NCBI GenBank assembly: GCA_004292855.1
Contig: RDXN01000049.1
Location: 21,760 to 85,759, forward strand
Source of the DNA: Cytophagales bacterium
GTDB taxonomy: Bacteria > Bacteroidota > Bacteroidia > Cytophagales > Spirosomataceae
Direction: 5' to 3'
DNA length: 64,000 nucleotides
The translations under genes and the position numbers were made by a program. Below the pieces are notes generated by a model. That model saw only the letters and a list, made by a program, of their open reading frames with translations, did no database searches and had not been told where the DNA came from. Shown here piece by piece: positions 36,625-56,978 of this stretch. Position 1 is the first letter of the stretch. The number at the start of each line of letters is the position of its first letter.

Positions 36625-37749
36625 CTACTTCATTTTCAGCAGCTCACTGCCGGCCAGTAGATACGCGCCCGTCCCGAAGTTCTGCCAACTGTCTTTGTCG
36701 GCGGGTTTGGGGTCGAAACCGATGTTTTGCACCCAGCCAATTTTGCCCGTCTCCTGCTGACACTGAGTCAGCGCATCCCAGGCTTTCAGCACGGCGGGCT
36801 GGTAGGTTGCCTTGTCTAACAAGCCGTTGTTGATGCCCCAAGCCAGGCCGAACGTGAAGAAACCACTGCCGCTCACCTCGCCGTGCGGGAACGTTTCGGG
36901 AGCCAGCAAACTAGTGCGCCAGAGGCCGTCGGCGGGTTGCAGGTCTTTAATTCGGGCGGCCATATCCTTGAACAGTTTCTCGTAGAACGGGCGATTTTTG
37001 TAGTTCTTGGGCATGTCTTCCAGCAACAAAGCCAACCCGCCCAGCACCCAGCCGTTGCCCCGCGACCAGAAAATATGCTTGCCGTTGGCTTCTTTGCGGT
37101 CGCTATCCTTGCCCGCCCACAAGAACCGGACATCCCGCGCAAACAGTTTATCGTCCTTGTTGTAGAGTAGGTCGTAGGTCTGCATGTAGTATTTGTGCAT
37201 CTGATCGAGATAGACCGGGCCACTCCTGGCCGGGTCTCTTTTCTGTTTGGCGTAAACCGTCAGCACAGGCGGGGCCATGAAAAGCGCGTCGCACCACCAC
37301 CACAAAATGCGCTGATCTTTATCGGGAATGCCCACGCGCCATTCGTGGGGTTTGTAGAGGTGCTGGGCGATGATGCTGTCGGTTGGAACGGTATTGACCG
37401 TTTTCTCTTTGAGCGAGTTGAGGTACAGATACGAGTAGCAGATCGCCATATCGTCGGCGTGGTAGAACCGCTCGTAGGGTTGCCAGTTGTTGCGATTGGC
37501 CATGCCAGTGAGGGCATTCAAAAAAGCGTTGTTGCGAGTCGATTTGTGCGCCCGAACAACGCCCGTGTAGTAGGCTCCATTGGTCCAGTCGGTGGGGGCT
37601 TTGGCGAAAATGGGGTTGGCTTCCTGCCAGGCCAACGCCCGAAGCATCGACTGCTCAATGGCTTTTTTATCAGGCAAATTGCCCGGTTTCCACGACGACA
37701 GGCAAAGTATCAGGACGGCAAAAATTGGTAGTATTAGTCTGGTTTTCAT
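36625..37749 (-). CDS. GH88/GH105 unsaturated glucuronyl/rhamnogalacturonyl hydrolase
   Basis: signal peptide; YteR/UGL six-hairpin motifs ([19 protein letters not shown]). Confidence 0.7.
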
Positions 37750-37801
37750 GTAATTAATAAATGATTGGAGTTGCCTGAAATGTGAGTAATCGGACGATTT
37801 T

Positions 37802-37879
37802 GTTTTTGTCATTCCGAGGTACGAGGAATCTCACAATCAGGCAACTGTAAGATTCCTCGTACCTCGGAATGACAAAAAC
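37802..37879. repeat. REP/MITE-like element, short variant copy 7 (GTCATTCCGAGGTACGAGGAATCT)
   Basis: perfect 29-bp arms with matching substitutions. Confidence 0.85.
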
Positions 37880-37895
37880 AAAGCCGTCCAACTTA

Positions 37896-40490
37896 TTAAT
37901 TCGATTTATTGAAAATCACTCGCTTTCCCGACTCTACTGTAACGTCAACAGTATCGGCGGCTTTGACGGTTGGGGTATCGCTTTCCATTTGCAAGTAAGC
38001 GGCTGTGGGTTTGCCACTTACAGACTTCAGGGACAACTTTCCAAACGACCCTGATTGCCCATGTCCCAGATAGATCGAGTGCAGTTTGTTTGCGTCGGTT
38101 AGGGTAATAACGGCGTATCGACCCTTCACACGGATGCCGAGTTTGGAGTCGGCAAATTCGGCTTCGTCCGAGTCCTGCATAATCACGTACTGCGTGAGCA
38201 GCCCATTCGATGTATTGCTCTTGATAGTCACTCCCTTGAACGCATCGCCCTGCCGGATAGCCTCGACCGACTGAATGCTGCCGTTGCTGTTTGCGTCGGT
38301 TGGTTCGTAAACCACGGCAAACGGGTGTGTCCAGGCTTCGCCGGTTTGCCGAATCACGAGCGTCGGCGTGGGGCGATTCGCATACGCTTTGGGGCTGTCG
38401 GTCGTGGGTGGGGCCATCACGCTTGTGTATTCGCGGTTGGCATCGCCGGGGATAAACACGTTCATCTGCACGGGCTGCGGGCGGATGGCGTTGGCCTTGA
38501 AACTGACCCGAACATCGTTTGGATACATCCCCGACGTGTTGACCGATTTGAAAAAATGCCAGCCCGGATGCCGCGCCTTTTTGTTGTTTTGCCACGCTTT
38601 CTGTTCTGAAGCCGCGTATCGTTCCGGGTCGGGGCGGAGTTGAAACGCCGGGGTCGGTGCGGTGACCAGGAGCGTGTCGCCGATGTTGTGATACACGTAG
38701 TCGTGGTACTGCGTTGGCAGGGCCGATTTTGACCGGAACAGGTCCACGTAGTAGGCGGTCGTGGGCGAAGTGCGGATGAGAGCCAATGTGCGTTCCTGAG
38801 TGGCTTCGGCTCCGTCGCCCCGGTCGTCGAGGAAGCGCGAAACCGAAAACGAATGGTTGGCCGACACCCCCGACTGCCGATACCTCGGCTCAATCGCCAC
38901 CGGCTCAACCCGGTTCGTGCCGAGGTTGGCCCAGCCCCCGTTGCTTTCCGATGAGCCGTTGACAATCACCGTATTATGACCTGCAAAAAGCCGGTAATAA
39001 TTCTCGTGAATATCGGTCGTGTAGGCACTGCGTCCCGCTTTCACACCCATCACCATGCCCTTGCCGTAGAGTTCCATGTTCATACCCGATGCGTGACCAT
39101 GCACAAACGAGGCTCCACCCACAAAACCCATCAGATCGTCGGCGGGGTTGTTTGTGGGGCTAAAATTGCGCTGAATCTGAATCCCGGCGAAGGGTAATTC
39201 GTCGGTGATGGGCAGCGGATACGCCTTCGTTTGGCCCTCTATTTCAGGGCTAAACCACAGCAGTTCAACGGGTTCGTTATAAACTTCCGCGCCGTAATTG
39301 CGCTTGCCCACTGCGGGGCGACTATACTGTTTGGTGCTGATTCCGCTGGTTATCAACGCCCCAAATTCGCGTTTCAGGGTCGCCGAATTCTCCAACTGCC
39401 CCAGGTGGTAGGCCATCTCAAACGAATGATAGTCGAGGTGAAATGATCGGTGTCCGTCGCCAAACACCACCATGTCGCGCTTATTCGGGTAGGTCAGGTA
39501 GTAGGTGGTGGTGAGCGCGAAGGGGATCTGCGGGTATTGATTGCCCAAGTGCAATGACGGATCGAAGCGGGTCAGGAGCGTCATCAGGTAGGTGGTCAGA
39601 CCCGCAACCGCACCGGAATAGTTGGTACTTTCGGGCCAGTTGCCGCCGTGTTTCTGGTAAAACTGCCCCACCTTTTGGAGCGCGTCCTGATGGGGGGTGT
39701 TTTTAGTCAGATAATACGGCAGAAAGGAATCCCGTTCGGCAGGGTCGTTGAGAGCCAGCGTGTTACCCACCAAACTCGGCGATTCCAAAATTGGCCAGTT
39801 GCAGTTGATAATGCCCTGTTCCAGAGCCAGATTGATGTAGGTTCGGAAAACGGCTTGCGCGTGATCGTGCGAAAACGGGACTTTTTTCCCCGCCCCCAAA
39901 TCATAAACTGCGCTGTTCTGGGCGATGAACGGATACGCGAAATCATACAGAATCGGGATACCCGCGCCGATCTCGCGAGCCTCGCGCAGGTGGTCGTCGG
40001 GGTAGAGGTAGCCCCCGCCATTATGCCCGCCCGCACTGGGTTTCAGCGGCACAAGCCCTTCGACAAGGGTGTGCAGGATGTCGGCACTGCATTGGCCATA
40101 TTTCGGGTCGTTGGTCAGGTAGTAGAGAATGCCACAGTCGATGCCCGTTTGCAAATAGTGAATCACGATTTTCCGCAATTCGGCATCACTCGTCACGCCC
40201 TTGATCGGCGCGAACGGCGGAATTTTCCCGGCCTCCTGCTTCGCCCAATCGAGGGGCATTTTGCTTAAATAAGCTTTGGCATCGGCCTGATGGCTGCTTA
40301 CATCGTCGGCCACGCGCTTCACAAAAGCGTCGTAGTATGTTTTGGCCCAGGGTGTCGTCCTGATTTTTTGCAGGATAGCTGCCTTGTCCGCCGGTTTCAC
40401 CCAGATCATCGGCCTGACAACCTCCTGAGCCAGCGCGACGGAGTGCCAGAAAAATAGATTGATTACTAAGCAGTTGAGTAATTTTTTCAT
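37896..40490 (-). CDS. heparinase II/III-like polysaccharide lyase family protein (putative)
   Basis: 864 aa, signal peptide, size and architecture fit alpha/alpha-toroid + beta-sandwich lyases; assignment is by resemblance only. Confidence 0.45.
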   Translation of the reverse strand: MKKLLNCLVINLFFWHSVALAQEVVRPMIWVKPADKAAILQKIRTTPWAKTYYDAFVKRVADDVSSHQADAKAYLSKMPLDWAKQEAGKIPPFAPIKGVTSDAELRKIVIHYLQTGIDCGILYYLTNDPKYGQCSADILHTLVEGLVPLKPSAGGHNGGGYLYPDDHLREAREIGAGIPILYDFAYPFIAQNSAVYDLGAGKKVPFSHDHAQAVFRTYINLALEQGIINCNWPILESPSLVGNTLALNDPAERDSFLPYYLTKNTPHQDALQKVGQFYQKHGGNWPESTNYSGAVAGLTTYLMTLLTRFDPSLHLGNQYPQIPFALTTTYYLTYPNKRDMVVFGDGHRSFHLDYHSFEMAYHLGQLENSATLKREFGALITSGISTKQYSRPAVGKRNYGAEVYNEPVELLWFSPEIEGQTKAYPLPITDELPFAGIQIQRNFSPTNNPADDLMGFVGGASFVHGHASGMNMELYGKGMVMGVKAGRSAYTTDIHENYYRLFAGHNTVIVNGSSESNGGWANLGTNRVEPVAIEPRYRQSGVSANHSFSVSRFLDDRGDGAEATQERTLALIRTSPTTAYYVDLFRSKSALPTQYHDYVYHNIGDTLLVTAPTPAFQLRPDPERYAASEQKAWQNNKKARHPGWHFFKSVNTSGMYPNDVRVSFKANAIRPQPVQMNVFIPGDANREYTSVMAPPTTDSPKAYANRPTPTLVIRQTGEAWTHPFAVVYEPTDANSNGSIQSVEAIRQGDAFKGVTIKSNTSNGLLTQYVIMQDSDEAEFADSKLGIRVKGRYAVITLTDANKLHSIYLGHGQSGSFGKLSLKSVSGKPTAAYLQMESDTPTVKAADTVDVTVESGKRVIFNKSN

Positions 40491-40498
40491 AGATAAAC

Positions 40499-41623
40499 TC
40501 AGTTCATTTGTACTACCAGCGGACTTGCCAACGCTTCTTTAAACGCCTGAAGATAAGCGAACCACGCGGGCGCATCGGTGATGACCCCGGCTTTGTTCCA
40601 GCAGGCTCCGGTGTAATAGATAAACGGCTCGTTTTGCACCGATGTGGATTGTGCCAGCAGTTGCTCGCCCGTGATTTTCATGGCCGTGACGGGCGTAAGC
40701 AGCACCGAACCCACGCCCGTGATGCCGTCCGGTCCGTGTTGCGGCTCCCAATAGGCCATGATCCCGCGTTGCTCATCGAGCAGCATTTGCCCCAGCTCCG
40801 GGCGTTTGATGATCCCGACCACAACCGGCAGTTTCGATGCCCCACTGTAGCGGTAGGTAGCCTCAACCCGGTTCATCTGCGTACCGGCATCCAGAGTGAT
40901 TTTTTTGGTGGCCGTCACCTTCAGGCCGTTCACATCCCACTCGTCGTATTCGAGCACAAACGTGGTTCGGATGGGGCCGTTGTCCAGCACTTTCCAGCGG
41001 TGGTAGTTTTTGGAATAATAGACCGAATCCTTCACGTAGGGCATCACGTTGCCCGCGCCGAGGGTGTGGCCAACGTGGTAATAATCCATACCGTCGCCAA
41101 TGTCTTCGTGGTATTTGCCGCGTTTGTACCGAGCGTCGAGAACGAGTTTGTCGGTGCGTTTCACCCACACGTCCAGCCCGTAAGCATCGCCTTTGGTGCC
41201 TTCCAAAGCCTTGCCATAAGCGCGAAACGCCACTTTGTCGTTTTCCCACGCAAAATCGTCGAGCCGTTCGGGAACGTACCGGGCAAAGGTTTTGGCTGCA
41301 ACGGGAGCTGGTTTACCTTTCTGAACAGACACCTGAACGCTGCTCTTGGCCGGAACTGATACCTGCATCAACAGGTTCTGCACCGACGCTTCGCCCTGCC
41401 GCTCCAACTGATAAGGAATCTCGGCTTTTGTCCGACTGTCGATCAACCGAAAATTGGCCGAATCGAGGGTTGAGTAGCGGGCTTTCAGAGCCTTCCACGA
41501 AACACCGACAACGGCTTCGTTCCGGGCAACGGTAGCCTCGTTTTGAACGGTAATCGTACCCTGCCCCAATACCGGAAGGGTAAAGCCAGAAAGCAGAAGA
41601 ATGAAATAGTGGTGTTTTTGCAT
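40499..41623 (-). CDS. DUF4861-like secreted protein (PUL accessory, often with GH105)
   Basis: signal peptide; neighbourhood and length; weak recognition. Confidence 0.5.
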   Translation of the reverse strand: MQKHHYFILLLSGFTLPVLGQGTITVQNEATVARNEAVVGVSWKALKARYSTLDSANFRLIDSRTKAEIPYQLERQGEASVQNLLMQVSVPAKSSVQVSVQKGKPAPVAAKTFARYVPERLDDFAWENDKVAFRAYGKALEGTKGDAYGLDVWVKRTDKLVLDARYKRGKYHEDIGDGMDYYHVGHTLGAGNVMPYVKDSVYYSKNYHRWKVLDNGPIRTTFVLEYDEWDVNGLKVTATKKITLDAGTQMNRVEATYRYSGASKLPVVVGIIKRPELGQMLLDEQRGIMAYWEPQHGPDGITGVGSVLLTPVTAMKITGEQLLAQSTSVQNEPFIYYTGACWNKAGVITDAPAWFAYLQAFKEALASPLVVQMN

Positions 41624-41730
41624 TTTCAGGGTAATGTAGTATTGAAAAATCTTGTCGTATGTACTTAGCGTTGGGTGCATTTCACTCTTGTGTTTTGCTC
41701 AACCGTCGCCACTTAAAGCAACCTATATTG

Positions 41731-41824
41731 GCCTTACGGCCATGCCGGAAAGTATCCGGCACTACAAAAGTCGCCCCTTCACGTAATGCCGGATATTTTC
41801 CGGCATGGCCGTAAGGCCAACAAC
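41731..41824. repeat. family-B inverted repeat pair (about 38-bp arms, 17-nt loop)
   Basis: ATTGGCCTTACGGCCATGCCGGAAAGTATCCGGCACTAC / GTAATGCCGGATATTTTCCGGCATGGCCGTAAGGCCAAC. Confidence 0.85.
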
Positions 41825-41846
41825 ACACAAGATCGAAATGCACCCC

Positions 41847-42965
41847 TTAGCGTTTGCCAGTCTCGCTGTCAGGTTTTACGCCGGTTATCTCGCTTACTTT
41901 TTGGAAGAAACCCCGCTTCCGGTCAGAGTTAATACCCCAATCGACTGGGACACTCTGAAAACCTTCTTTGTAGTCGGTCTCGCCCTTAAAACGAAAATCG
42001 AAGTAGCCCCACGACACGTAATTTTTTACGGAAACGGTGAAGTTATTGATCTCCTTGTCGAAGTCGAAATGGTCGTCTTCGTTGTTCATAACGGGCATTT
42101 CCCGATAACCTTCTACCTGCCGGGTGGCATCAATGAGTGTTTGGATCTGTTGGGGTTGTTTGGCTCCGTTCCCGTGAATCAAGATCAAATCTGAGACTTT
42201 CACCACGTTGGATGTCGGCACCTGCCGGCCCCCGTAACTCGTTCCTACCAGAAACCGATAGCCGTTTTTCTTCTTCCCTTTCACCCGCTCAATCAGCTCA
42301 TGAATCCGGTCGGGCCACAGGATTTTGTGGTCGTAGTTGCCGGTCGTGTTGGTTTCGTTGGCAATTTCGATGATGACGTTCCGGTATTTTTTGTCAAACA
42401 GCCAGTTCGTCAGGTTGTCGGTTGCGTTTACAATGGCCCGCTCGTCGGTCAGGTTCTGATCCTGACCAAAGTAAAAAATGCCCAGAATCACGACCATGTT
42501 CAGGTCATCGGCCTTTTTCAGAATCCGATCCAGCCGCTTCATGTACGGCTCCATCAGCGAACCATCGGGGTTGAAGCCCGGATTCAGGCATTTTTTGTTG
42601 CCGTAGCCGTAGGGACTGCCGCCCTGCATATTGAGCGTGAAGGCATTCATGCCGTAGCTCTTCCAGAGTGGCATAGCCGCCACAAACTCGTTGGTGTTGC
42701 GGTCGGCATCCCATTTTTTGGTGTCGGAATAGGCAAACTCGGCTACCGTTTCGGGATTCAGATCATCGAAAATACCCTGAACCAACCGGGCGTTCATGAG
42801 CAACCCTTCGATTTTATTACCCTGCCAGGTTCGGCCCGGATAGGTAGGCTTTCCGTTGATATAGAACTGATTACCCTTGATTTCGACCCGCGTTTTTTGC
42901 GCGAACGAATGATTTTCCAAGACGAGAATCAGGGCGAAAAAGGCTAAAATTCGACGAGTGGTCAT
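41847..42965 (-). CDS. cellulase-like TIM-barrel glycoside hydrolase (putative)
   Basis: signal peptide; IIEIANE acid/base-like motif; family uncertain; start overlaps the sulfatase stop (ATGA). Confidence 0.4.
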   Translation of the reverse strand: MTTRRILAFFALILVLENHSFAQKTRVEIKGNQFYINGKPTYPGRTWQGNKIEGLLMNARLVQGIFDDLNPETVAEFAYSDTKKWDADRNTNEFVAAMPLWKSYGMNAFTLNMQGGSPYGYGNKKCLNPGFNPDGSLMEPYMKRLDRILKKADDLNMVVILGIFYFGQDQNLTDERAIVNATDNLTNWLFDKKYRNVIIEIANETNTTGNYDHKILWPDRIHELIERVKGKKKNGYRFLVGTSYGGRQVPTSNVVKVSDLILIHGNGAKQPQQIQTLIDATRQVEGYREMPVMNNEDDHFDFDKEINNFTVSVKNYVSWGYFDFRFKGETDYKEGFQSVPVDWGINSDRKRGFFQKVSEITGVKPDSETGKR

Positions 42966-44404
42966 GGTTTCGTTTTTCGTTTGTCTTCCCAAAAATCGGC
43001 TCCTCTGTTTTTCCGCATCAGGTCAGATAGCTCCGTGACGACCCCCGCATGTTCGGGTTGTTCGGCCAAATTTTTCAGCTCCAACGGGTCCGTTTTGTGG
43101 TCGAATAACATCCGTGCGGTACGGTTATCTTTATCATCAACCCATTCGGTGTAGAAATACTGGTCCTTAATGACGGTCAGCGCATCGCCCCACCGCGAGA
43201 TGGCAAACGTCTTGGTTCGTTTCCGGTTTTCGATCAACGGAACCACACTCTCGCCCACAGCCGTATTGGGCTTGGGCAACTGGGTTAATTCTGCCAGAGT
43301 TGGGAAAATATCAATAAACTCCACGATGTCTCTGATGCGCTGCCCCGATGTTTTTTGCGGAATTCGGATCAGCAAGGGCGTTGTCAGCGACGACGAAAAA
43401 TTGCAGTGTTTATTCCACAGTTGATGGTCACCGAGGTTCCAGCCGTGATCACCGATCAGTACCACAATTGTGTTTTTGTCTAACTCTAAGCGGGCAAGCT
43501 CGTCCATGATGATGCCTAACTGAGCATCCACATAACTCACACTCGCGTAATAGCCATGTATCAATTTCTTGGCTAAATCTTTAGAAACGAGACCTTTATC
43601 GGGAATGCCGTAATAATTGCGCAGCTCGCCCGAATTATGAAACGCCACTTTTGGAGTACTGGCCGGTTGGCTGTAGTTGGCGGGTAGCCGGATTTTGGTA
43701 CTATCATACAGATCCCAGTATTTTTTGGGCGCATTAAACGGCAAATGAGGCTTGTGAAAACCAACCGTCAGGAAAAACGGCTTCCCGCTTTGCTTGAACT
43801 TTTGTAAATCCTTCTTGATTTTCAGGGCCATTTTGCCATCCCGGTAATCGGTATCGTTGAGGGCTACGTCTTCGTAAGCATAACCCCGATTGTTGTCTTT
43901 TCGGACAGGTTCGTTTTTCACCAGATCCACATTGACCGGATTGATATAGTCTAATTCGCCGTTGCCTTTAGCTTGCCAAATTTCGTCCCAGGCATCTTTC
44001 TCGTCCTGTTTTTGATGGAAAATTTTACCGTTCGAGATGGTTGTGTAGCCGTTTTCGTGAAAAATACGAGGCATCGATTTGGCTCCTGGGTAATGCTCAT
44101 TTAGGAAATCGCCATGATTAATAAAGCGATACCGAGCCGGTCTTGCACCCGACATCAGGCTCGCCCGCGATGCTCCACAAACGGGTATGTTGCAATAGGC
44201 CCGCTCAAAAATGGCACTCCCTGCAGCCAGTTTATCGATATTGGGCGATTTGATGTGCGTGGCCCCAAAACTGCCCAATTCAGGACGCAGATCATCGGCA
44301 ACAATGAACAGGACGTTCATTTTGCCCTGCTCAACGGGTTGTTTTTTAAACCCGACCAGTAAACCGAGTATCAAAACAAGGGAAAGGGGTACGGCTATTT
44401 TCAT
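42962..44404 (-). CDS. sulfatase (formylglycine-dependent, S1 family)
   Basis: CGASRASLMSG Cys-x-A-x-R FGly motif, VADDLRPELG N-terminal metal site. Confidence 0.85.
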   Translation of the reverse strand: MKIAVPLSLVLILGLLVGFKKQPVEQGKMNVLFIVADDLRPELGSFGATHIKSPNIDKLAAGSAIFERAYCNIPVCGASRASLMSGARPARYRFINHGDFLNEHYPGAKSMPRIFHENGYTTISNGKIFHQKQDEKDAWDEIWQAKGNGELDYINPVNVDLVKNEPVRKDNNRGYAYEDVALNDTDYRDGKMALKIKKDLQKFKQSGKPFFLTVGFHKPHLPFNAPKKYWDLYDSTKIRLPANYSQPASTPKVAFHNSGELRNYYGIPDKGLVSKDLAKKLIHGYYASVSYVDAQLGIIMDELARLELDKNTIVVLIGDHGWNLGDHQLWNKHCNFSSSLTTPLLIRIPQKTSGQRIRDIVEFIDIFPTLAELTQLPKPNTAVGESVVPLIENRKRTKTFAISRWGDALTVIKDQYFYTEWVDDKDNRTARMLFDHKTDPLELKNLAEQPEHAGVVTELSDLMRKNRGADFWEDKRKTKP

Positions 44405-44454
44405 AATCTAGTATTGAATTTGATCAAATCTCTGTTTAGGCGCATTTTTTGTCA

Positions 44455-44567
44455 TCCCGAAGTTTTTTTGTCATTCCGAGGAACGAGGAATCTACTTCGT
44501 TAACCCTCGATTGTGTATTAACGAAGTAGATTCCTCGTTCCTCGGAATGACAAAAACTCACTTTCCA
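44455..44567. repeat. REP/MITE-like element copy 8, with an extra upstream half-copy (TTTTTGTCATCCCGAAG)
   Basis: GTCATTCCGAGGAACGAGGAATCTACTTCGTTA / TAACGAAGTAGATTCCTCGTTCCTCGGAATGAC. Confidence 0.85.
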
Positions 44568-44571
44568 GCGT

Positions 44572-48084: not shown

Positions 48085-48093
48085 AAATCAGAT

Positions 48094-48750
48094 TCAAAAA
48101 GCGACGTTGCGCGTGTAATCATTCAGGACGTGGGCGATTCCGTTGGCATACCGCAGATTGTGCGTGCGGACGGTGGTGCCGCGCCGGGTAGCGGTGAGCG
48201 GGAAAACCGTTGCCGGATTCACCGAAACCGTGTATCGCTCATCGCGCCGGAGCAGGATTTTTCCGTTGTCGCCCTCGTTGAGCGTCTGGAAAAAATAATC
48301 GCTCCCATACGCTTTCAAGGGGTCAATCTGCGTGATATACTCCTTGTCGATGATGTGGTATTTCAGCAGGTTTGCCAGCCGGACTTTATCGGCGGCCCGA
48401 ACCGGCCCCGTGACCTTGCCCGTCAGCGTTTGCAGAATCTTGTTGGCATCATCGAAGGCGTTGTTGTTCAGCAACAGAAATGTTCGCCGGTCGCTCTTCC
48501 GGTTGAACTCCTCCACCAAACCCGTGTACTCGATGGCATCAATCAGGAAGTCAAATTTATATTGATCGACCGCCGTGAGGCTGCTCGGCGATTTCTGGGT
48601 TTGGAGCCATTCCCAAACGGTCTGGTTCTCGTAGGTGGCGATGTCGTTGGTTTCAGGAACAAATTCAAATGGTTTCTGCACCTCCAGATCGCAACCGATC
48701 AGGGGCAGAAACAACACAAGGATGAAGAAATATTTCAGATGAGAAAACAT
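48094..48750 (-). CDS. fasciclin (FAS1) domain lipoprotein
   Basis: lipobox LPLIGC; FAS1 motifs (TFLLLNNNAFD, NGIAHVLNDY). Confidence 0.7.
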   Translation of the reverse strand: MFSHLKYFFILVLFLPLIGCDLEVQKPFEFVPETNDIATYENQTVWEWLQTQKSPSSLTAVDQYKFDFLIDAIEYTGLVEEFNRKSDRRTFLLLNNNAFDDANKILQTLTGKVTGPVRAADKVRLANLLKYHIIDKEYITQIDPLKAYGSDYFFQTLNEGDNGKILLRRDERYTVSVNPATVFPLTATRRGTTVRTHNLRYANGIAHVLNDYTRNVAF

Positions 48751-48795: not shown

Positions 48796-48870
48796 CCCCC
48801 CGCCCTAAAGGGTGCCTTGCTTGCGCCAGAGTGGGCTTACGCGCCAGCAGGCCCCCTTTAGGGCGGGGGG
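48796..48870. terminator. GC-rich 17-bp-stem hairpin (CCCCCCGCCCTAAAGGG / CCCTTTAGGGCGGGGGG) downstream of susD
   Basis: read directly. Confidence 0.5.
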
Positions 48871-48877
48871 TGACATT

Positions 48878-50338: not shown

Positions 50339-50354
50339 AGTGAGGCTATTAAAT

Positions 50355-53300
50355 TTAAAACCCTGCTTTGATCCCGATAATAAAATCCCGCTTGTTCGGA
50401 TACCTCAGGTCGTCCTGACCCGGTTGCAGCACATTGCCGCGCGTGCCGAGTTCGGGGTTGTAGCCGGGGTAGTTGGTGAACGTGATCAGGTTGTTGACCG
50501 AAAAATTGACTGACGCATTTTTCAGCCAGGGCGTTTTTTTCAGCATCGTTGCCGGTAGGCGATACGAAAACCGAACGTTGCGGAACTTGATATACTCGCC
50601 CGGACTGATGTACTGGGAGTTTGGCCCCAGCCGGTTTTGAGTGCGATTGCGGTCGAGGCTCGCATATTCGGACACGTCGCCTGCTTTCACCCACGCCCGG
50701 TCGATCCGTTCGGGGGCGGGGGTTTCGTTGGCTGAGTTCAGGTCGTTGCGCTGCTGATCGTAGTTACGGAAGATCTGGTTGCCAAACGTGTAATCGAACA
50801 AAAACGACAGCGAGGCCGCTCCATATTTGAACTCGTTGAAAAACCCGCCGAAGTACTTCGGCAATCCATTCCCGATTACTTGCCGGTCGAAGCCGTCAAT
50901 CGAAAAATTATTGTCGAGGTCCTGCCAGAAAATATCGCCCCCACGTAGCACCGTTGCGCCAATTCGCTGGCGATTAACGGTTCCCGTATAGTCGGCCCCG
51001 TTTTGCTGGTATTTAACGAAGGCTCCGTTCTCAAAAACAGGAGTCAACTGCGTGCCGCTTGCATCGAAAGCGTTGTGCTGATCGGTTGGGAAAATGCCGA
51101 GATTCCGATACCCGTAGAAATTACCAATCGATTCACCCTGCTGAATAAAGAAATTCCCCGCCGTAAAGCCATCTTCGTCAGCCAGTTCGAGCACTTTGTT
51201 TTTCTGGAACGTGATGTTGAAATTGCTAAACCACTCGAACGGACCCTTACGATAAGGCGTCCCGCTCAGGTTAATATCGACTCCACGGTTGCTCACCGCC
51301 CCAATGTTTTGCCGCGATACGGAGAACCCCGTTTCTTCGGGAATCGGTACGTTGTAGAGCAGGTTCCGGGTAGTTTTTTGCCAGAAATCAACCTCCACGT
51401 TCAACCGCGACTTAAACAAGGTGGCGTTCAGGCCGTAGTTGACCGATGCTGTACTTTCCCAGCCTAAGTTGGGATTAGCCAACTGAAAACTGGCTACGCC
51501 GTTGATGCCGTTGTAATAGAAACCCGGACGATACAGCAGCAGCGATTCGTAGTTGCCCACGCGCTCGTTGCCGGTGGCCCCGAAACTCGCTTTCAGCAGC
51601 AGATTGTTGACCTGCGGAATACCCTTGAAGAATTTTTCATTGCTGAGTCGCCAACCTACCGAACCCGACGGGAAAAGGCCATACCGTCGGTTGGCCCCAA
51701 ACCGCGACGAACCATCGCGCCGGAGCGTCGCTTTAACCAAATATTTGCCACCGTAATCATACGAAACATCTCCGAAAAGGCCCGTCAGGGCGTGCCGGAA
51801 CTTGTCGGTGCGGGTGTTGCCGAGGTTAAACTCAGCGACGTTATTAAAGGTGCGGATATTGTCGGAAACAAACGAAATGGCCACCAGATCAGACGATTCC
51901 TCTTCCCATAGTTGGCTCGAATAGCCCGCCAAAGCTCCCAGCGAGTGCTTGTTGAACCGCTTTTTGAACCGGAAATAATTTTCCTGGAGCAGGTCATAAC
52001 TCAGCCCGTAGCCTTCGCTGCCCGTTGCGGGCCGGCCAATGGTCTGCACAATAATCGGGTCGAAATTATTTTGCTTGTTTAGCCTGAAATTGACCCCCAG
52101 CGTGGTTTTGAACGTAAGCCAGGGGGCCAGTTCCAGTTCGAGAAAGCTAAACGATTGGGCGCGATAATTCCGGTTGTCGCGGGTGGTGAACAGGGCTTCG
52201 GCCACCGGATTCTGCCGACCCGCAATCTCCGGGGTGTAGCTTCCGTCGGGTTCAAAAATGGGGAAGTAGGCAATCCGCTCGGCAATTTGCTGAAACACCG
52301 CGCCTTCATTCAAACCCTTTGTTAGCTCATACGACAGGTTGAGGGCCGTGCCGCCATTCATCCGCTTATTGATTTCGAGGTCTAATTTCAACTTCGACGT
52401 TATGCGGCTGTACGAACTGTTGAGCACAATTCCGTTCTCGTTGAGGTAGCCAGTGTTCCAGTAAAACCGGGTCCGGTTGGTGCCGCTACTCAACGATACG
52501 TTCACCTGATCGCGAACACCCGTGCGGGTAACCAGGCTGTTCAGGTCGTTGGAAATCTGGTATAACAAGCTGGTTGAGTCGGCAGATTGATTTTCCGGGG
52601 CCAAACCCGCCCGCACGTTCTCGTAATAAAACCGCTGCCGGGTGTTGGCAATCGGAATCGCGCTTGCCACCTGACTATACACCCGCCCGTAGTCAACGTC
52701 GAGCCGAAAATCGTTGGTCTTCCCCGATTTGGTGGTGATGATAATCACACCGTTGGCCGACTTCGACCCGTAGATAGCCGCCGAAGCCCCATCTTTCAGC
52801 ACTTCTATCGAGGCAATGTCGTTTGGGTTCAGGTTGTCGATGTCTTCCAACTGCTGCCCATCCACTACATACAATGGATTCACGCCCGCCGAAAACGTCG
52901 ACGTACCTCGAATGCGAATATCCGACCCCGATCCCGGCCCGCCGTTCGACGAAATCTGCACCCCGGCAATCCGTCCCTGCACCGCATCGAACGCGTTAAT
53001 AGGCGTTGTCTGCTCAATATCCTTTTCTTTAATGGAGCTAATCGAACCCAGAATATCCTTACGGCTCGTGGTCGAATAGCCCGTTACCACCACTTCGTCA
53101 AGTGACTGACTGTCAGGCAACAGAGCCACGTTGATGGTGGAGTTGTTGGCGACCAGAACTTCTTTTTTGGTAAACCCCACAAACGAAAAAACCAGGATTG
53201 CCTTGTTGTTCGGCACCGAGATCTGGTAGTTGCCGCTGGGGTCGGTCACGGTTCCGTTGAACGTACCTTTCAGCAACACCGACACGCCCACCAACGCGGC

Positions 53301-53747
53301 CCCTTCCGAGTCGGTCACGGTTCCTTTTATCAGTTTCGCCACGACCGCCTGCCCCTCCGTTGGGGGCATATTCGTCATGCCCACGTCTTTTTTGAACAGG
53401 AGAATCTGCCTGTTTCCTGCCGGTTCATACGTGATTTTCAGGGGTTTGAAAATCTGATCGAGCACCTGCCGTAGCTGTTCGTTGGTGGCCTTGAAATTAA
53501 TTTTCTGGCCTACTTTCAACTCTTTCGGGTTGAAAACGAAACGCACACGCGATGCCTTTTCGAGCTTGCTGAGGGTAGATCGCAAGTCTTCGTTGACGAG
53601 TTCGACGCTAACGGTTTGGTCGAGAAGCTCCTGCCCCGCCGAGTCGTGCGCGAAGGCAAAACCGGCGAACAGGGCGACAAGTACTAGCTGAATGAAGGTG
53701 AGCTTTGCCAGGTGATCGATGTACCGGACGAGTAATTGTTTATCCAT
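50355..53747 (-). CDS. SusC/RagA TonB-dependent outer-membrane transporter with N-terminal STN signalling domain
   Basis: 1130 aa; STN domain, carboxypeptidase-regulatory-like domain, plug and beta-barrel; C-terminal F. Confidence 0.9.
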   Translation of the reverse strand: MDKQLLVRYIDHLAKLTFIQLVLVALFAGFAFAHDSAGQELLDQTVSVELVNEDLRSTLSKLEKASRVRFVFNPKELKVGQKINFKATNEQLRQVLDQIFKPLKITYEPAGNRQILLFKKDVGMTNMPPTEGQAVVAKLIKGTVTDSEGAALVGVSVLLKGTFNGTVTDPSGNYQISVPNNKAILVFSFVGFTKKEVLVANNSTINVALLPDSQSLDEVVVTGYSTTSRKDILGSISSIKEKDIEQTTPINAFDAVQGRIAGVQISSNGGPGSGSDIRIRGTSTFSAGVNPLYVVDGQQLEDIDNLNPNDIASIEVLKDGASAAIYGSKSANGVIIITTKSGKTNDFRLDVDYGRVYSQVASAIPIANTRQRFYYENVRAGLAPENQSADSTSLLYQISNDLNSLVTRTGVRDQVNVSLSSGTNRTRFYWNTGYLNENGIVLNSSYSRITSKLKLDLEINKRMNGGTALNLSYELTKGLNEGAVFQQIAERIAYFPIFEPDGSYTPEIAGRQNPVAEALFTTRDNRNYRAQSFSFLELELAPWLTFKTTLGVNFRLNKQNNFDPIIVQTIGRPATGSEGYGLSYDLLQENYFRFKKRFNKHSLGALAGYSSQLWEEESSDLVAISFVSDNIRTFNNVAEFNLGNTRTDKFRHALTGLFGDVSYDYGGKYLVKATLRRDGSSRFGANRRYGLFPSGSVGWRLSNEKFFKGIPQVNNLLLKASFGATGNERVGNYESLLLYRPGFYYNGINGVASFQLANPNLGWESTASVNYGLNATLFKSRLNVEVDFWQKTTRNLLYNVPIPEETGFSVSRQNIGAVSNRGVDINLSGTPYRKGPFEWFSNFNITFQKNKVLELADEDGFTAGNFFIQQGESIGNFYGYRNLGIFPTDQHNAFDASGTQLTPVFENGAFVKYQQNGADYTGTVNRQRIGATVLRGGDIFWQDLDNNFSIDGFDRQVIGNGLPKYFGGFFNEFKYGAASLSFLFDYTFGNQIFRNYDQQRNDLNSANETPAPERIDRAWVKAGDVSEYASLDRNRTQNRLGPNSQYISPGEYIKFRNVRFSYRLPATMLKKTPWLKNASVNFSVNNLITFTNYPGYNPELGTRGNVLQPGQDDLRYPNKRDFIIGIKAGF

Positions 53748-53840
53748 CTACAGTGAAGGGTCTTCTTTCTTAGCAGATGGCGGTCGGGAAAGTCAGATAC
53801 TGTGTAAGTTTAAAAAAAAGTAGAAAATAATCCTACTCAC

Positions 53841-54926
53841 TTAATTACACCCTTCGCTTCGAATAAAAATCTGTGCATCAACCACTTCGTAGGTCGAGTG
53901 CGTGATTCGGCAGATCAGATCGAGTTTTTCAAATAACGATTCTTCGGTCAGGTTGGCCGTCAGGTAGCAATTCTCAATCGTGCGCTCGTCGTAAGTAAAC
54001 GAAATACCGTAGGCACTGCTCAAGTTTTGCAGCACCGTTTTGAGGGGCGTTTCGTCAAACACAAATTGCTCGTTGGCAGGCGTAGCCACAAGTTCCGGCT
54101 GTTGTACAATAGATTTCACCAATCGCTCCTCTTTGGGCGCAACCGTAGCCTGCTGATTGGTTGTTAGCACCACGCCCGTCAGCCGACTGTTGCCGCGTTC
54201 GCTGACAGCCCGTAAATCTTTGTACAAATAGACCGACACCTTGCCCGACCGTACCTGTACGCTCGCATCGGCATTTTTCGCGAACGAATTTACCATAAAA
54301 CTCGTCCCCAGCACCTGCGTAGATAGTTTGTCGCTATGCACCCAGAACGGTTTTTTGGGATTTCGGCTAATCTCGAAAAAGGCTTTTCCGTTCAGAAAAA
54401 CCACTCGTTTCGTCGGTTCAAACGGGTTTGGGTATTTAATGCTACTGTTAGGGTAAAGCGTAATCACGCTGTTCTCCGATAGTAAAATCCGAACGGGTTT
54501 GTCGGTATCGTTGGTGTTTTCGATGTATTTGCCAGTGGTCGGTTGGCCGTTGGCGACAGTCGATTGGGTCGGTTTCAGAATAAGTTGCCGGTATAAAAAG
54601 CCCCCAATACCTAACACCAACAGGATTGAGGCCGCGATTCGCATGGCCGGACTGCGCCAGAAAAAGATCACTTTGGGGCGATTCTCAGCCACCGTGTCGG
54701 CCACAAAATCATCTATCTCTTCGTCGGAAATAGTAACGGGGGTCTCCTGCAAATTCAGTAAAATGGCTTTGGCAACGTGTACCTTCCGGGCATTTTCGGG
54801 CTTGACGGCCATCCAGTTCGTCCAGGATGCCTCTCCTTCCGAATCGTTGTTCAGCACCCATTCCCGAAACGGCTCCTGCCGAAGCAAGTCCTGAATCGTA
54901 TACTCCGTGTGTTCGTTCGGTATCAT
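53841..54926 (-). CDS. FecR-family anti-sigma factor
   Basis: single TM, FecR + DUF4974-type C-domain. Confidence 0.85.
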   Translation of the reverse strand: MIPNEHTEYTIQDLLRQEPFREWVLNNDSEGEASWTNWMAVKPENARKVHVAKAILLNLQETPVTISDEEIDDFVADTVAENRPKVIFFWRSPAMRIAASILLVLGIGGFLYRQLILKPTQSTVANGQPTTGKYIENTNDTDKPVRILLSENSVITLYPNSSIKYPNPFEPTKRVVFLNGKAFFEISRNPKKPFWVHSDKLSTQVLGTSFMVNSFAKNADASVQVRSGKVSVYLYKDLRAVSERGNSRLTGVVLTTNQQATVAPKEERLVKSIVQQPELVATPANEQFVFDETPLKTVLQNLSSAYGISFTYDERTIENCYLTANLTEESLFEKLDLICRITHSTYEVVDAQIFIRSEGCN

Positions 54927-55052
54927 GTGGAGCTTGATTTCTTATTAGATGGCGTTACGAATGAACCCATACCCTACCAATTGGAAAATTTTGACAGCGT
55001 ACCATGAAAGTTGACCAAAATCAACCGCATACGTTGTCTGTTGAAATTCAAA

Positions 55053-55147
55053 TTTTTTGTCATTCCGAGGAACGAGGAATCTCAAATTATCCTTGCTATC
55101 TAGTTGGTAACCAGTAAGATTCCTCGTTCCTCGGAATGACAAAAAAA
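55053..55147. repeat. REP/MITE-like element copy 9 (GTCATTCCGAGGAACGAGGAATCT variant)
   Basis: read directly. Confidence 0.85.
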
Positions 55148-55156
55148 CGTACTTTA

Positions 55157-55741
55157 CTATGTGCTCAAACCATTCCAGCGTGTTCTGATAAACTTGAACG
55201 CAGCCTGTAGCAGGTTAGAAACCGACTGCGGATTGATGCCCATTGTCTCGGCAATTTCGTCGCGGCTCATGTTCTGGAAATACTGCAAATAAACTACCTC
55301 CCGTTGCCGACGGGGGAGTTCGTCCAGCACGGCGTTCACTTTAGCCTGAATCTGTTGCTCCTGCTCGTCGTTAATCCAGGCCCACTCAAATGGTTCTTCG
55401 CTTAGGGAGGCATCGTTGGCAAGATCCAACTCAAAATCGGCCGCGTCGAACTTTTGCCGGGAGCTTTCGCGATACAGTTTCCGCCGAACCGAACTAAGCA
55501 GATACGCCTTTACGCTATCAGGAACGCTGATTCGCTCGCGCCGTTTCCAGATTTCGATGAATACTTCCTGCACGCAATCGTTGATAAACTCTTCGTCGCG
55601 CACAAACCGAAAACCGTAGTTGGCCAATGGCCGAAAATACAGTTTCACGATTTTGGAGAACGCGAGTTCGCTGCCGGCCTTCATCTGAAGCCATAATTGT
55701 TGGTCGGTTTGCCCCGCATTGGAAGAACCCGGCTTACTCAC
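55157..55741 (-). CDS. ECF (sigma-70 group IV) RNA polymerase sigma factor
   Basis: region 2 and region 4 motifs (FIEIWKRRE, LPRRQREVVYL). Confidence 0.9.
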   Translation of the reverse strand: MSKPGSSNAGQTDQQLWLQMKAGSELAFSKIVKLYFRPLANYGFRFVRDEEFINDCVQEVFIEIWKRRERISVPDSVKAYLLSSVRRKLYRESSRQKFDAADFELDLANDASLSEEPFEWAWINDEQEQQIQAKVNAVLDELPRRQREVVYLQYFQNMSRDEIAETMGINPQSVSNLLQAAFKFIRTRWNGLST

Positions 55742-56978
55742 ACGGTCTGGTTAGGCGGCTTACATTAGTTGGGTTCCGCACGGTCGACGCAAAAGCGCAG
55801 TAGTCTGGTTTGTTCATCATACTGCCCGCATCCACGAATAATCGGCGCAGTTTATCAAGTTCTGAATCAAGGTCGCCCAGTTGCTCGCGGGTCCAGGTGG
55901 CTTTGCCCTCAGCGTAGGGTTGCAGAAACTCGTAGGCTTTTTGAATACTGCCACCTTTGGGGTTCTTGTAATTCCACAAATCAACGTTGAGCAATTTGCC
56001 GAAATAGGCCAGATGCGTGAAGGCGTTGAGATTCATGATGCTGTAGGACAGCGACTTGGTACGAGCCAACTCTTCGGGTTGCGAACCGTCGGCATCGAGT
56101 TGATGGTCGATTCGTTTTTTGGTCGTGGATTCGAGAACGGCTTTGGCCTCGGCATCGCGTTTCAGAAACAAGAGAATCGCCACCACCTGCGCGTCGTACC
56201 AGGTGCCGTGATTGTTCATTGTTGCTTTTTCTTCTAACGCTAACTTACCTGTTTGCAGCCAGTTGACGTACTCCGTGAGCCAGGCCACCAGCCCGGCATC
56301 CGTTTTCTGGTCAAGCGCGTTGCCTTCCCGGAGCATTTCGATGGTCGTGGTCAGGTCGATTACGCCCGTAAACTCGATAATACCAAAGCCCCGGCCCGTG
56401 CTCACGCCCGGCACGCCCTGACCAAAATTCAGGTTGGGATTCATTTTGGTTTCGGGGTTCAAGAACCACGTTTGCAACACCTCGATGGCTCGTTGGGCAT
56501 ACTTCCGGTCGTCCGAAAAGTAGTAAGCCATAGCCAATGCCTCGGCACGTTTGAACATCGCATCTTTGGCAGGCTGATCCACGTTTTCGCCCCGCGTGAG
56601 GGGGTTCACCTGCCCATCTTTCCGAATCCAGGGCAGGCCGTCGGGTTTGGCTGGATCAGGCCACCAATAGGGGGCAAGGCTGAGATAATCGTGTTTGTCG
56701 CCACTCGGCGGGGTCTGCGTTTTTGTTACCACCGACGTTAGTTTACCCATCAGTTGCTTGTCGGCAGATTTCAGTACAGTCTGATAATAAGGCGCATACG
56801 TTGTCTCTTTCTTTTTCAGACTGGCCTTTACGGCGGCAATCTTGCGGTCGTCCAGAACCGTGAACGTTCTGGACGCTGCAATGCCTGTGGTGTCGTCGAT
56901 GGGGGTAGTTGGGATTGAGTTACCAACCAAAAGGAGGCAGGAGGCAAGGGTGGTAAACGGGTTTAGGAATAGTTTCAT
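55734..56978 (-). CDS. alginate-lyase-family (alpha/alpha toroid) secreted protein
   Basis: signal peptide; DYLSLAPYWWPDP motif typical of the Alginate_lyase/heparinase N-domain; 8-nt overlap with sigma-factor gene. Confidence 0.5.
   Translation of the reverse strand: MKLFLNPFTTLASCLLLVGNSIPTTPIDDTTGIAASRTFTVLDDRKIAAVKASLKKKETTYAPYYQTVLKSADKQLMGKLTSVVTKTQTPPSGDKHDYLSLAPYWWPDPAKPDGLPWIRKDGQVNPLTRGENVDQPAKDAMFKRAEALAMAYYFSDDRKYAQRAIEVLQTWFLNPETKMNPNLNFGQGVPGVSTGRGFGIIEFTGVIDLTTTIEMLREGNALDQKTDAGLVAWLTEYVNWLQTGKLALEEKATMNNHGTWYDAQVVAILLFLKRDAEAKAVLESTTKKRIDHQLDADGSQPEELARTKSLSYSIMNLNAFTHLAYFGKLLNVDLWNYKNPKGGSIQKAYEFLQPYAEGKATWTREQLGDLDSELDKLRRLFVDAGSMMNKPDYCAFASTVRNPTNVSRLTRPCE

Follow-up and report, generated by a model that had tools for sequence, protein, structure and literature searches.

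Within the 64,000-nucleotide stretch of DNA analysed here (the window), a SusC/SusD-type polysaccharide utilization locus (PUL) was identified at 36625–56978 that, judged from its sequence, probably targets ulvan or a chemically ulvan-like glycan. The host is an uncultured Cytophagales bacterium represented by a metagenome-assembled genome (MAG). Ulvan, the principal polysaccharide in the walls of bloom-forming green seaweeds and a biorefining target, contains a GlcA/IdoA-(1,4)-Rha3S repeat together with Xyl(2S)-Rha3S units. The preliminary description of this DNA had proposed an ulvan-type substrate and named family calls as the way to check it. The best solved-structure relatives of four of the enzymes are characterised ulvan enzymes (PL40, GH105, P36_S1_25, and P18_S1_7), which sharpens the predicted target to ulvan, and the family-level evidence points clearly to this polysaccharide. 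The type of system is known; its build and regulation differ from those of the marine ulvan loci studied so far.

Organization of the locus

The locus covers about 20 kb and comprises 12 genes, all co-directional on the minus strand, as seen from the open reading frame (ORF) coordinates and the Pfam and NCBIfam profile matches. Its boundaries were correctly drawn at the outset: it is flanked by a GNAT gene in divergent orientation at 57144 and by a convergent gene for an S8 peptidase, which ends at 36559. The domains first listed for the locus were all recovered in the 12 ORFs, and the gene content stands as described, with a correction to the order, which reads GH105, lyase, DUF4861. Three gene starts were also revised. 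The GH105 gene (36625–37749) probably starts at 37749, not at the end of the longest ORF (37812), because a palindromic element occupies 37808–37873. The DUF4861 gene (40499–41623; ORF as first given 40499–41680) most likely starts at 41623, the call made by NCBI, yielding a protein of 374 aa with a signal peptide. The start of the GH5-like gene (41847–42965; ORF as first given 41847–42992) is most likely 42965, which yields 372 aa and a 4-nt overlap with the adjacent sulfatase gene.

Several intergenic regions contain palindromic elements. The element at 55053–55146, between the sigma and anti-sigma factor genes, has perfect 30-nt arms and is one member of a repeat family represented by four inverted pairs in the window, including those at 37808–37873 and 44470–44551. 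At the positions of the latter two, the sister strain has gaps of 28 nt and just 20 nt, respectively. Sister strain L041 lacks the element at 55053–55146, and its ECF protein has a longer C-terminal tail. A nested inverted-repeat element (41673–41845) separates the GH5-like and DUF4861 genes, and its core 20-mer recurs at 29201–29220. In sister strains, this element is missing and the two genes are joined into one.

Outside the locus, an HpcH aldolase (57679–58440) and an Amidohydro_2 protein (58709–59599) were considered as rhamnose catabolism genes of the PUL, and this assignment was not supported. The aldolase falls below every equivalog cut-off (HpaI, 177 bits vs 369; RhmA, 145 bits vs 441), and its neighbours encode an acyl-CoA synthetase and an enoyl-CoA hydratase.

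Core enzymes with characterised ulvan relatives

The heparinase-II/III-like protein (37896–40490) is a PL40 lyase by alignment. Its best PDB match is the PL40 ulvan lyase Uly1040 (9vtk, E 2.8e-205), with 41% identity over 816 aligned positions in a full-length alignment (residues 7–824). All eight catalytic or binding residues identified in Uly1040 by mutagenesis are conserved: N231, W232, E287, Y291, D345, H464, H466, and Y490 correspond to N245, W246, E301, Y305, D358, H485, H487, and Y511 of Uly1040. PL40 lyases consist of two domains, an (alpha/alpha)6 toroid and a beta-sheet domain. The residues of the PL40 tetrad (His-Asp-His-Mn) and the tyrosine acid are aligned at H464, D345, H466, and Y291, and the precomputed Pfam matches include Ulvan_lyase_2nd and Ulvan_lyaseC. 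Among the ulvan lyase families PL24, PL25, PL28, and PL40, the locus encodes this PL40 protein with its catalytic residues intact, and no PL24, PL25, or PL28 lyase was found in it.

The GH88-type protein (36625–37749; PF07470, Glyco_hydro_88, 228 bits) is predicted to be a GH105 unsaturated (3S-rhamno)glucuronyl hydrolase acting on delta-Rha3S. Its best PDB match is the Nonlabens “unsaturated 3S-rhamnoglycuronyl hydrolase” (4ce7, E 9e-151). The stand-alone sulfatase (42962–44404) carries the FGly motif CGASR at C76 and is most similar to Formosa P18_S1_7 (6hhm, E 8e-84), an ulvan endo-xylose-2-sulfatase. Family S1_7 also includes iduronate-2-sulfatases. The fourth enzyme of this group is a fusion (44572–48084) in which residues 22–459 match Formosa P36_S1_25 (6hr5, E 7e-195), with the FGly motif CTASR at C73, followed by GH78 domains at residues 477–1139. 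The domain order is that of P36, whose two domains act one after the other on ulvan oligosaccharides. The fusion would supply both the S1_25-type Rha3S sulfatase and the alpha-L-rhamnosidase (GH78/GH106) expected of an ulvan PUL.

Glycosaminoglycans (heparin/heparan sulfate or chondroitin/hyaluronan) were weighed as an alternative target, which is suggested by the Pfam labels of the lyase (Hepar_II_III_C) and the hydrolase, and by human iduronate-2-sulfatase as the second-best PDB match of the stand-alone sulfatase (E 4e-56). Two further proteins of the locus, described below, belong to or resemble families with members linked to these polymers: BT3233 (DUF4861) is required for growth of Bacteroides thetaiotaomicron on chondroitin sulfate, hyaluronan, and heparin, and one PL38 member degrades hyaluronan and chondroitin sulfate. 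[quoted passage not shown] The hydrolase matches the ulvan GH105 much better (506 bits) than it does GH88 structures (182 bits), the breakdown of glycosaminoglycans offers no role for a Rha3S sulfatase joined to a GH78 rhamnosidase, and neither a hexosaminidase nor a GlcNAc/GalNAc sulfatase is present in the locus. We consider this target very unlikely.

The combination of a lyase, an unsaturated uronyl hydrolase, and a rhamnosidase also follows the logic of rhamnogalacturonan I (RG-I) and gellan degradation, and GH105 is best known from RG-I. Pectic RG-I or a sulfated variant, or a sphingan/gellan-type Rha-GlcA polysaccharide, might therefore fit the overall scheme. Against this, the Pfam matches revealed no PL4, PL9, PL11, PL26, GH28, or esterase in the locus, such a target would not explain the two FGly-type sulfatases, whose best matches are ulvan-specific, and the GH105 protein is nearest to a 3S-rhamnoglycuronyl-specific enzyme. 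Such a substrate appears extremely improbable, and the sulfated rhamnogalacturonan that had been put forward beside ulvan is not supported.

Uptake and regulation

The locus also contains uptake genes and a complete regulatory triad of ECF sigma factor, FecR, and STN-SusC. The SusC/RagA TonB-dependent transporter (50355–53747; TIGR04056, 761 bits) contains Plug and CarbopepD_reg_2 domains and an N-terminal STN signalling domain (32.3 bits, cut-off 28.4). The SusD-family lipoprotein (48878–50338) matches SusD_RagB and SusD-like_3 and has an N-terminal lipobox (SSC). Next to it, a fasciclin-domain lipoprotein (48094–48750; PF02469), with the lipobox LIGC followed by acidic residues, is a candidate surface glycan-binding protein; in the related PL40 locus L037, a fasciclin gene occupies the same position after SusD.

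The ECF-type sigma factor (55157–55741) contains Sigma70_r2 and r4_2 and scores above the cut-off of TIGR02937 (84 bits) and under that of TIGR02985 (Bacteroidetes ECF, 106 bits). The anti-sigma factor (53841–54926) combines FecR and FecR_C with a single hydrophobic segment at about residues 94–113. An adjacent ECF sigma factor with regions 2 and 4, a FecR protein with one transmembrane segment, and an STN-containing SusC are the components of trans-envelope regulation, and the control by this trio suggested earlier is thus borne out at the domain level. Scans for the sigma-70 promoter consensus and intrinsic terminators gave counts at chance level, and our literature search found no ulvan PUL regulated by an ECF/anti-sigma pair.

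The lyase gene at the start of the cluster (55734–56978) had been described as overlapping the sigma factor gene by 8 nt. This overlap holds with the GTG start at 55741 but not with the in-frame ATG at 55684, the start called in the sister strain, which leaves a gap of 49 nt. Over the 57 nt between the two candidates, the sister strain differs by a single substitution, synonymous when read in the GTG frame; this weakly favours the GTG start. As the two genes point the same way and are spaced by −8 or +49 nt, the lyase gene may plausibly be co-transcribed with its regulator.

Additional conserved proteins

The first gene of the cluster encodes a PL38-like lyase (Pfam Alginate_lyase, PF05426, 284 bits). 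Its closest PDB match is the uncharacterised 3nfv (E 4e-80), and BoPL38 (8bdq) matches at E 1e-52. Y104, H257, and Y312 align with Y91, H243, and Y298 of BoPL38, preserving the catalytic Tyr/His and a supporting Tyr, and H297 of BoPL38 is replaced by Ser. The known PL38 lyases (BoPL38, Aly38A, CUL-I, TpPL38A, and RiPL38) share the Pfam family and fold class of this protein. Known PL38 activities include that on beta-1,4-glucuronan, a component of green-algal walls, and consecutive GlcA residues occur in ulvan. No PL38 member is known from an ulvan locus or to be active on ulvan, and we found no literature on PL38 in ulvan loci. An ortholog with 62% identity is encoded within L037, and other Alginate_lyase-family genes are found in the PL40 loci L035 and L038.

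The GH5-like protein (41847–42965) matches PF00150 (Cellulase) marginally (25.8 bits, cut-off 23.5), with half of the model covered; it has no PDB sequence match at E 0.1 and no NCBIfam match. More than 7,000 homologues with 65–88% identity were retrieved, in which the N203-E204 motif and E296 are invariant. Its AF2 model (pLDDT 85) gives only remote GH5/GH140 fold matches in Foldseek (TM ~0.5, 10–15% identity), and a distinct family of clan GH-A describes the protein better than GH5 does. Relatives carry this highly conserved glycosidase as a fusion with either DUF4861 or a PL24/25-type domain.

The DUF4861/BT3233-family protein (40499–41623; PF16153, 269 bits; NF058564, 357 bits, cut-off 320) is modelled (AF2, pLDDT 86) with a galactose-mutarotase-like beta-supersandwich fold. 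A DUF4861 protein is also encoded on the ulvan plasmid of Alteromonas sp. 76-1, beside rhaM. Assignment of the locus protein (~42 kDa) as a PL37 dehydratase was rejected on size, CDF79930.1 being 69.31 kDa, and because it lacks the R-x-x-K-x-x-Y spacing that the mutated residues of P29 imply. A PL37 oligosaccharide dehydratase (P29_PDnc, ~69 kDa) was not found in the locus, which encodes no large lyase-like protein other than PL40.

Proposed pathway

By analogy with Uly1040, the PL40 lyase would cut Rha3S-(1,4)-GlcA/IdoA bonds endolytically by His/Tyr beta-elimination, giving mainly the unsaturated disaccharide delta-Rha3S and larger oligosaccharides. The oligosaccharides may be bound by the fasciclin lipoprotein and SusD and imported by SusC. 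Following the standard trans-envelope model, to which the observed domains correspond, passage of the ligand through SusC would signal via the STN domain to the FecR anti-sigma factor, releasing the ECF sigma factor and inducing the locus. In the periplasm, as for the Nonlabens and Formosa orthologues, GH105 would take off the unsaturated uronate, the S1_25 domain would desulfate non-reducing Rha3S before the fused GH78 removes rhamnose, and the S1_7 sulfatase would remove xylose-2-sulfate.

Pfam searches revealed none of the Formosa-type exo-glycosidases for xylose or saturated uronates (GH3/GH43/GH39/GH2) in the locus, the GH-A protein being the only candidate. Without these and the PL24/25/28 lyases, known enzymes do not account for complete ulvan degradation. 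The steps that lack a canonical enzyme are the removal of beta-xylose or saturated GlcA/IdoA and the cleavage of GlcA-GlcA stretches or wall glucuronan. Speculatively, the likeliest proteins to carry them out would be the conserved GH-A glycosidase and the PL38-like lyase, the DUF4861 protein serving as an accessory.

Related loci and their habitats

Syntenic loci were located through PL40 homologues, not through the fusion protein, whose closest match among GTDB representatives (79% identity, L001) lies in a different gene context. The genes recurring around PL40 in other genomes encode GH105, S1_25|GH78, S1_7-like, GH5-like, DUF4861, Alginate_lyase, fasciclin, and BNR_4 (PL24/25 Pfam family) proteins and rhaM. 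The PL38-like lyase, the GH-A glycosidase, and DUF4861 all recur in other PL40 loci of Cytophagales and their relatives. PL40 homologues (46–58% identity), as well as entire PL40/GH105/sulfatase/BNR_4/rhaM loci, were observed in Lacibacter sediminis, Spirosomataceae MAGs, Flavobacterium fluviatile, Pedobacter, and Pelobium. Emticicia and a MAG with the label nzgw, taken here to denote groundwater, carry homologues of the fusion, and the nearest relatives of the DUF4861 and GH5-like proteins are from Flavobacterium, Spirosoma, and Pedobacter. The marine genera Maribacter, Lewinella, Echinicola, and Wenyingzhuangia carry homologues too.

Lacibacter, Flavobacterium fluviatile, Emticicia, Spirosoma, and Pedobacter are known as freshwater or soil taxa. 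Because such taxa carry close homologues of the PL40, fusion, DUF4861, and GH5-like proteins, the natural substrate may not be marine Ulva ulvan. Enzymes of ulvan-type chemistry could then serve another ecological substrate, such as a sulfated exopolysaccharide or wall polymer of rhamnose and glucuronic acid made by cyanobacteria or by green algae living in fresh water or on land. This seems rather unlikely: the characterised relatives all act on ulvan from Ulva, an alga that itself extends into brackish and fresh water, homologues extend to marine genera, and no other polymer of such exact chemistry is known to have been tied to these genes.

Comparison with known systems and implications

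Ulvan pathways are known from a small number of marine Flavobacteriia and Alteromonas, where many enzymes are required. The ulvan PUL H of Formosa agariphila KMM 3901 was reportedly described by Reisky et al. in 2019. It serves as our comparison system (Baumgen et al. 2021, PMC8511951) and shares with the present locus PL40, GH105, the S1_25|GH78 hybrid (P36), S1_7 (P18), and a SusC/SusD pair. The reactions are also inferred to follow the same order (lyase, GH105, Rha3S desulfation, rhamnosidase). In contrast to PUL H, the Cytophagales locus has ~12 genes instead of the ~40 of its flavobacterial counterpart and lacks PL28, the PL37 dehydratase (P29), GH2/GH3/GH39/GH43, and S1_8, whereas the PL38-like lyase, the GH-A glycosidase, DUF4861, the fasciclin lipoprotein, and the ECF sigma/anti-sigma control are additional.

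Alteromonas ulvan loci are carried on plasmids, the UUL of A. macleodii HT-3 with Uly1040 (PMC12915356) and pAlt76 of Alteromonas sp. 76-1. They resemble the locus in a PL40 with an identical catalytic constellation, GH88/105, rhamnosidases, sulfatases, and, on pAlt76, DUF4861. These gammaproteobacterial loci differ in having plain TonB-dependent receptors without SusD, PL24/PL25 lyases, no ECF/FecR pair, and, in the stretch examined, separate GH78 and sulfatase genes. Control by ECF sigma, anti-sigma factor, and STN-SusC is known from Bacteroides PULs, for example for host glycans. Those PULs show the same three-component architecture immediately upstream of susC/susD; unlike them, the present locus is predicted to target an algal sulfated uronan, its sigma factor gene is preceded, and possibly overlapped, by a lyase gene, and a palindromic element lies between the sigma and anti-sigma factor genes.

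The 12-gene locus, with its PL40/GH105/S1_25|GH78/S1_7 core, may define a minimal ulvan toolkit. It nominates three recurrent, uncharacterised partners for biochemistry, the PL38-like lyase, the GH-A family, and DUF4861/BT3233, the last of which is already tied genetically to uronate-glycan use in gut Bacteroides. The occurrence of such loci in freshwater and soil genera raises the question of which ulvan-like polymers exist outside the sea. Tentatively, a distinct minimal ulvan-type pathway could extend across Cytophagales and Chitinophagales, non-marine members included, with the three partners replacing the accessory enzymes of Formosa. If so, new specificities would be expected, for instance a PL38 enzyme that cleaves segments of ulvan or glucuronan and a previously undescribed GH family acting on Xyl-Rha3S or GlcA-Rha3S, and there would be a substantial inland source of ulvan-like sulfated rhamno-glucuronans.

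Gene content and boundaries of the locus

The PUL lies on the minus strand (36625-56978) and comprises 12 ORFs in the same direction, represented in NCBI by proteins TAE29031-TAE29042 on a 99-kb MAG contig. Pfam and NCBIfam matches returned the same domain content as the preliminary description: a Glyco_hydro_88 protein and an 864-aa protein containing Hepar_II_III_C (both Pfam), a DUF4861 protein (assigned to the BT3233 family of NCBIfam at 357 bits; cut-off 320), a protein with a marginal Cellulase match, a 480-aa sulfatase, a 1170-aa sulfatase-GH78 fusion, a fasciclin protein, SusD, SusC (STN, CarbopepD_reg, Plug and barrel domains), a FecR protein (FecR and FecR_C), an ECF sigma factor, and an Alginate_lyase-family protein (55734-56978). 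With refined starts, the intergenic distances from the Alginate_lyase gene to the GH105 gene are -8, 230, 93, 16, 127, 9, 167, -4, 223, 8, and 146 nt. One flank begins with a divergent GNAT gene, beyond which lies a cluster of aldolase, amidohydrolase, acyl-CoA synthetase, and enoyl-CoA hydratase genes; the other carries a convergent S8 peptidase. The boundaries first proposed are therefore correct, as the genes on both flanks are unrelated to the PUL.

Ulvan-related enzymes

Comparison of the PUL enzymes with the sequences of solved structures (PDB) gave an unusually coherent set of matches, which at the sequence level point to ulvan. The sole match of the 864-aa lyase was Uly1040 (9vtk; E 2.8e-205, residues 7-824, 41% identity), a PL40 ulvan lyase of Alteromonas macleodii that is strictly ulvan-specific, acts endolytically, and releases the unsaturated disaccharide delta-Rha3S as its main product (PMC12915356). 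Mutants of Uly1040 at N245, W246, E301, Y305, D358, H485, H487, and Y511 lost activity or retained little of it (PMC12915356), and all eight residues are kept in the 864-aa lyase as N231, W232, E287, Y291, D345, H464, H466, and Y490. The GH88-Pfam protein matched the Nonlabens “unsaturated 3S-rhamnoglycuronyl hydrolase” (4ce7) with an E value of 9e-151, against 2e-52 for the nearest GH88 structure.

The N-terminal half of the sulfatase-GH78 fusion matched 6hr5 (Formosa P36_S1_25; E 7e-195). The Formosa protein P36 is an S1_25|GH78 hybrid conserved among marine ulvan PULs, in which both domains act one after the other on Rha3S-X-Rha3S oligosaccharides. For the stand-alone sulfatase, the top match was 6hhm (E 8e-84), the Formosa endo-xylose-2-sulfatase of ulvan P18_S1_7, followed by human iduronate-2-sulfatase. 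Both PUL sulfatases contain the C-x-A-x-R formylglycine motif.

Degradation of glycosaminoglycans by this locus is poorly supported, given that Uly1040 showed no activity towards HS, CS, or alginate (PMC12915356) and that a fusion of Rha3S sulfatase and rhamnosidase has no role in GAG breakdown. A locus directed at RG-I or gellan is likewise poorly supported, since pectin-specific families are absent. The ulvan-type substrate originally suggested is supported, as the best structure matches of the PL40, GH105, S1_25|GH78, and S1_7 proteins are all ulvan enzymes. An ulvan-type PUL is the best-supported reading, and we consider it highly probable.

PL38-like, GH5-like and DUF4861 proteins

The Alginate_lyase-family protein matched an uncharacterised structure, 3nfv (4e-80), and the characterised PL38 structure BoPL38 (8bdq; 1e-52). 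The catalytic residues Y298 and H243 of BoPL38, with the supporting Y91, are kept in this PL38-like protein as Y312, H257, and Y104. Characterised PL38 substrates are alginate, beta-1,4-glucuronan, or HA/CS; polyglucuronic acid has been described as a component of green-algal walls, and consecutive GlcA residues occur within ulvan. From these observations we reasonably infer that the PL38-like protein may act on GlcA-rich stretches.

The “cellulase-like” (GH5-like) protein gave no sequence match in the PDB or NCBIfam. Its family is very large and highly conserved, with more than 7,000 matches, the top ones at 65-88% identity and found in Spirosoma, Pedobacter, and Paludibacter, among others. 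An N-E motif of the kind seen in clan GH-A is invariant across the family. The AlphaFold model (pLDDT 85) showed only remote matches to GH5/GH140 TIM barrels. The DUF4861 model (pLDDT 86) folds as a beta-supersandwich of the galactose-mutarotase-like type and gave no diagnostic match; growth of B. thetaiotaomicron on chondroitin sulfate, hyaluronan, or heparin depends on the BT3233 family. Assignment of DUF4861 as the PL37 dehydratase (Formosa P29) was tested and rejected on size.

Related PL40 loci and gene fusions

Following PL40 homologues to their contigs identified overlapping gene sets in four loci. L035 encodes S1_25|GH78, GH106, a 3-keto-disaccharide-hydrolase-like protein, an S1_7 sulfatase (85% identity), a GH5-like::BNR_4 fusion, PL40 (64%), GH105 (79%), Alginate_lyase, and another sulfatase. 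L038 combines a hybrid two-component regulator, SusC, SusD, Alginate_lyase, S1_25|GH78 (72%), PL40, DUF4861 (67%), GH105, and two sulfatases. L037, from a Spirosomataceae MAG, contains FecR, SusC, SusD, fasciclin, BNR_4, GH5-like (63%), PL40, a sulfatase, GH105, Alginate_lyase (62%), ThuA, and an MFS transporter, while L036 (Lacibacter sediminis) includes GH106, SusC/D, PL40, GH88/105, a sulfatase, GntR, BNR_4, and rhaM. At least one PL25 ulvan lyase belongs to the Pfam family BNR_4: WP_129740764.1 is listed as PL25 in a review and as a BNR-4 protein in the annotation of pAlt76, the ulvan plasmid of Alteromonas sp. 76-1. Judging from these overlapping gene sets, the PL38-like, GH5-like, DUF4861, and fasciclin genes are recurring members of this PL40 locus type, not chance neighbours.

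Gene fusions reinforce the link among the locus proteins. In sister strains (~92-97% identity), the GH5-like and DUF4861 proteins are fused; contigs L039 and L040 encode this fusion as a 733-aa protein and lack the segment 41570-41867, which runs from the end of the GH5-like gene across a repeat element to the signal peptide of DUF4861. An 817-aa protein of L035 (7520-9973) joins the GH5-like domain with one of BNR_4 (PL24/25) type. DUF4861 matches also occur under genes annotated GH88 on Asticcacaulis and Catenovulum plasmids (H16, H17, H19, H20), and DUF4861 adjoins rhaM on pAlt76.

Locus content differs even between strains ~92% identical: directly upstream of the PL38-like gene, the sister-strain contig L041 has an extra 501-aa sulfatase gene (6802-8307), where the window has the divergent GNAT acetyltransferase (57144-57671).

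Predicted regulation and transport

The ECF sigma factor (regions 2 and 4 present), the FecR protein with its single hydrophobic segment (~residues 94-113), and SusC with its N-terminal STN domain have the domain architecture of the standard triad for signalling across the envelope. Lipoprotein signals are present on SusD and the fasciclin protein. In L037, too, SusD is followed by a fasciclin gene, an arrangement in keeping with a role of the fasciclin protein in binding glycans at the surface.

The 8-nt overlap described between the lyase and sigma genes holds only with a GTG start at 55741 and gives way to a 49-nt gap with the in-frame ATG at 55684, where the gene of a sister strain is annotated to begin. 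The strains differ at a single site within the disputed 57 nt, and this substitution, being synonymous when read from the GTG, weakly favours the longer form. Co-transcription of the two genes, asserted earlier from the overlap, is plausible because they are close and co-directional with either start. A scan for consensus promoters and terminators was uninformative on this point, and a literature search found no report of ECF/anti-sigma control of ulvan loci.

Repeat elements

A palindromic repeat family (arms ~23-30 nt, core GTCATTCCGAGGAACGAGGAATC) forms four inverted pairs in the window, with none expected by chance. One lies outside the PUL (6620-6702), and three occupy intergenic gaps of the PUL (37808-37873, 44470-44551, and 55053-55146). 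The last of these, between the sigma and anti-sigma genes, also takes the place of the final ~17 codons that the ECF gene has in the sister strain. Because all three PUL copies are absent from sister strains (~90% nucleotide identity), where the gaps measure 20-50 nt, the elements look like recently mobile MITE/REP-like insertions. The GH5-like and DUF4861 genes are separated by a second element (41673-41845), a nested inverted repeat whose arm pairs measure 38 and 25 nt; its core 20-mer recurs at 29201-29220.

Neighbouring regions

A separate sugar-catabolic cluster (14600-29000) encodes an FGGY kinase, a sugar transporter of the ABC type (ABC_tran, DUF2291, Peripla_BP_4), two nucleoside-hydrolase-like proteins of the Sde182 family, an IU_nuc_hydro protein, an esterase, and a Fucose_iso_C-like isomerase, together with a transketolase whose N and pyr/C halves are encoded by different genes; the cluster may resemble the apiose/apulose transketolase pathway. 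Between this cluster and the PUL (29950-35170), GT2 glycosyltransferases (one rhamnosyltransferase-like), a DegT/DnrJ aminotransferase, and a Band_7 protein look like part of a surface-polysaccharide biosynthesis region. Downstream of the PUL, 57679-63973 encodes an HpcH/HpaI-family aldolase (below every equivalog cut-off), an Amidohydro_2 protein, an alpha/beta hydrolase, a PRK12582-like acyl-CoA synthetase, and an enoyl-CoA hydratase, probably an aromatic or organic-acid catabolic cluster outside the PUL. The NCBI name of the aldolase, “host specificity protein”, looks like a mis-annotation.

Natural substrate and relation to known systems

Many close homologues belong to genera of fresh water or soil, so the natural substrate may be an ulvan-like polymer of non-marine producers. 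No feature of the locus overturns current understanding. The kind of system is already known, but this variant has four new features: its compactness; the absence of PL24/25/28, PL37, and GH2/3/39/43; a predicted ECF/anti-sigma pair in control; and three recurring uncharacterised proteins.
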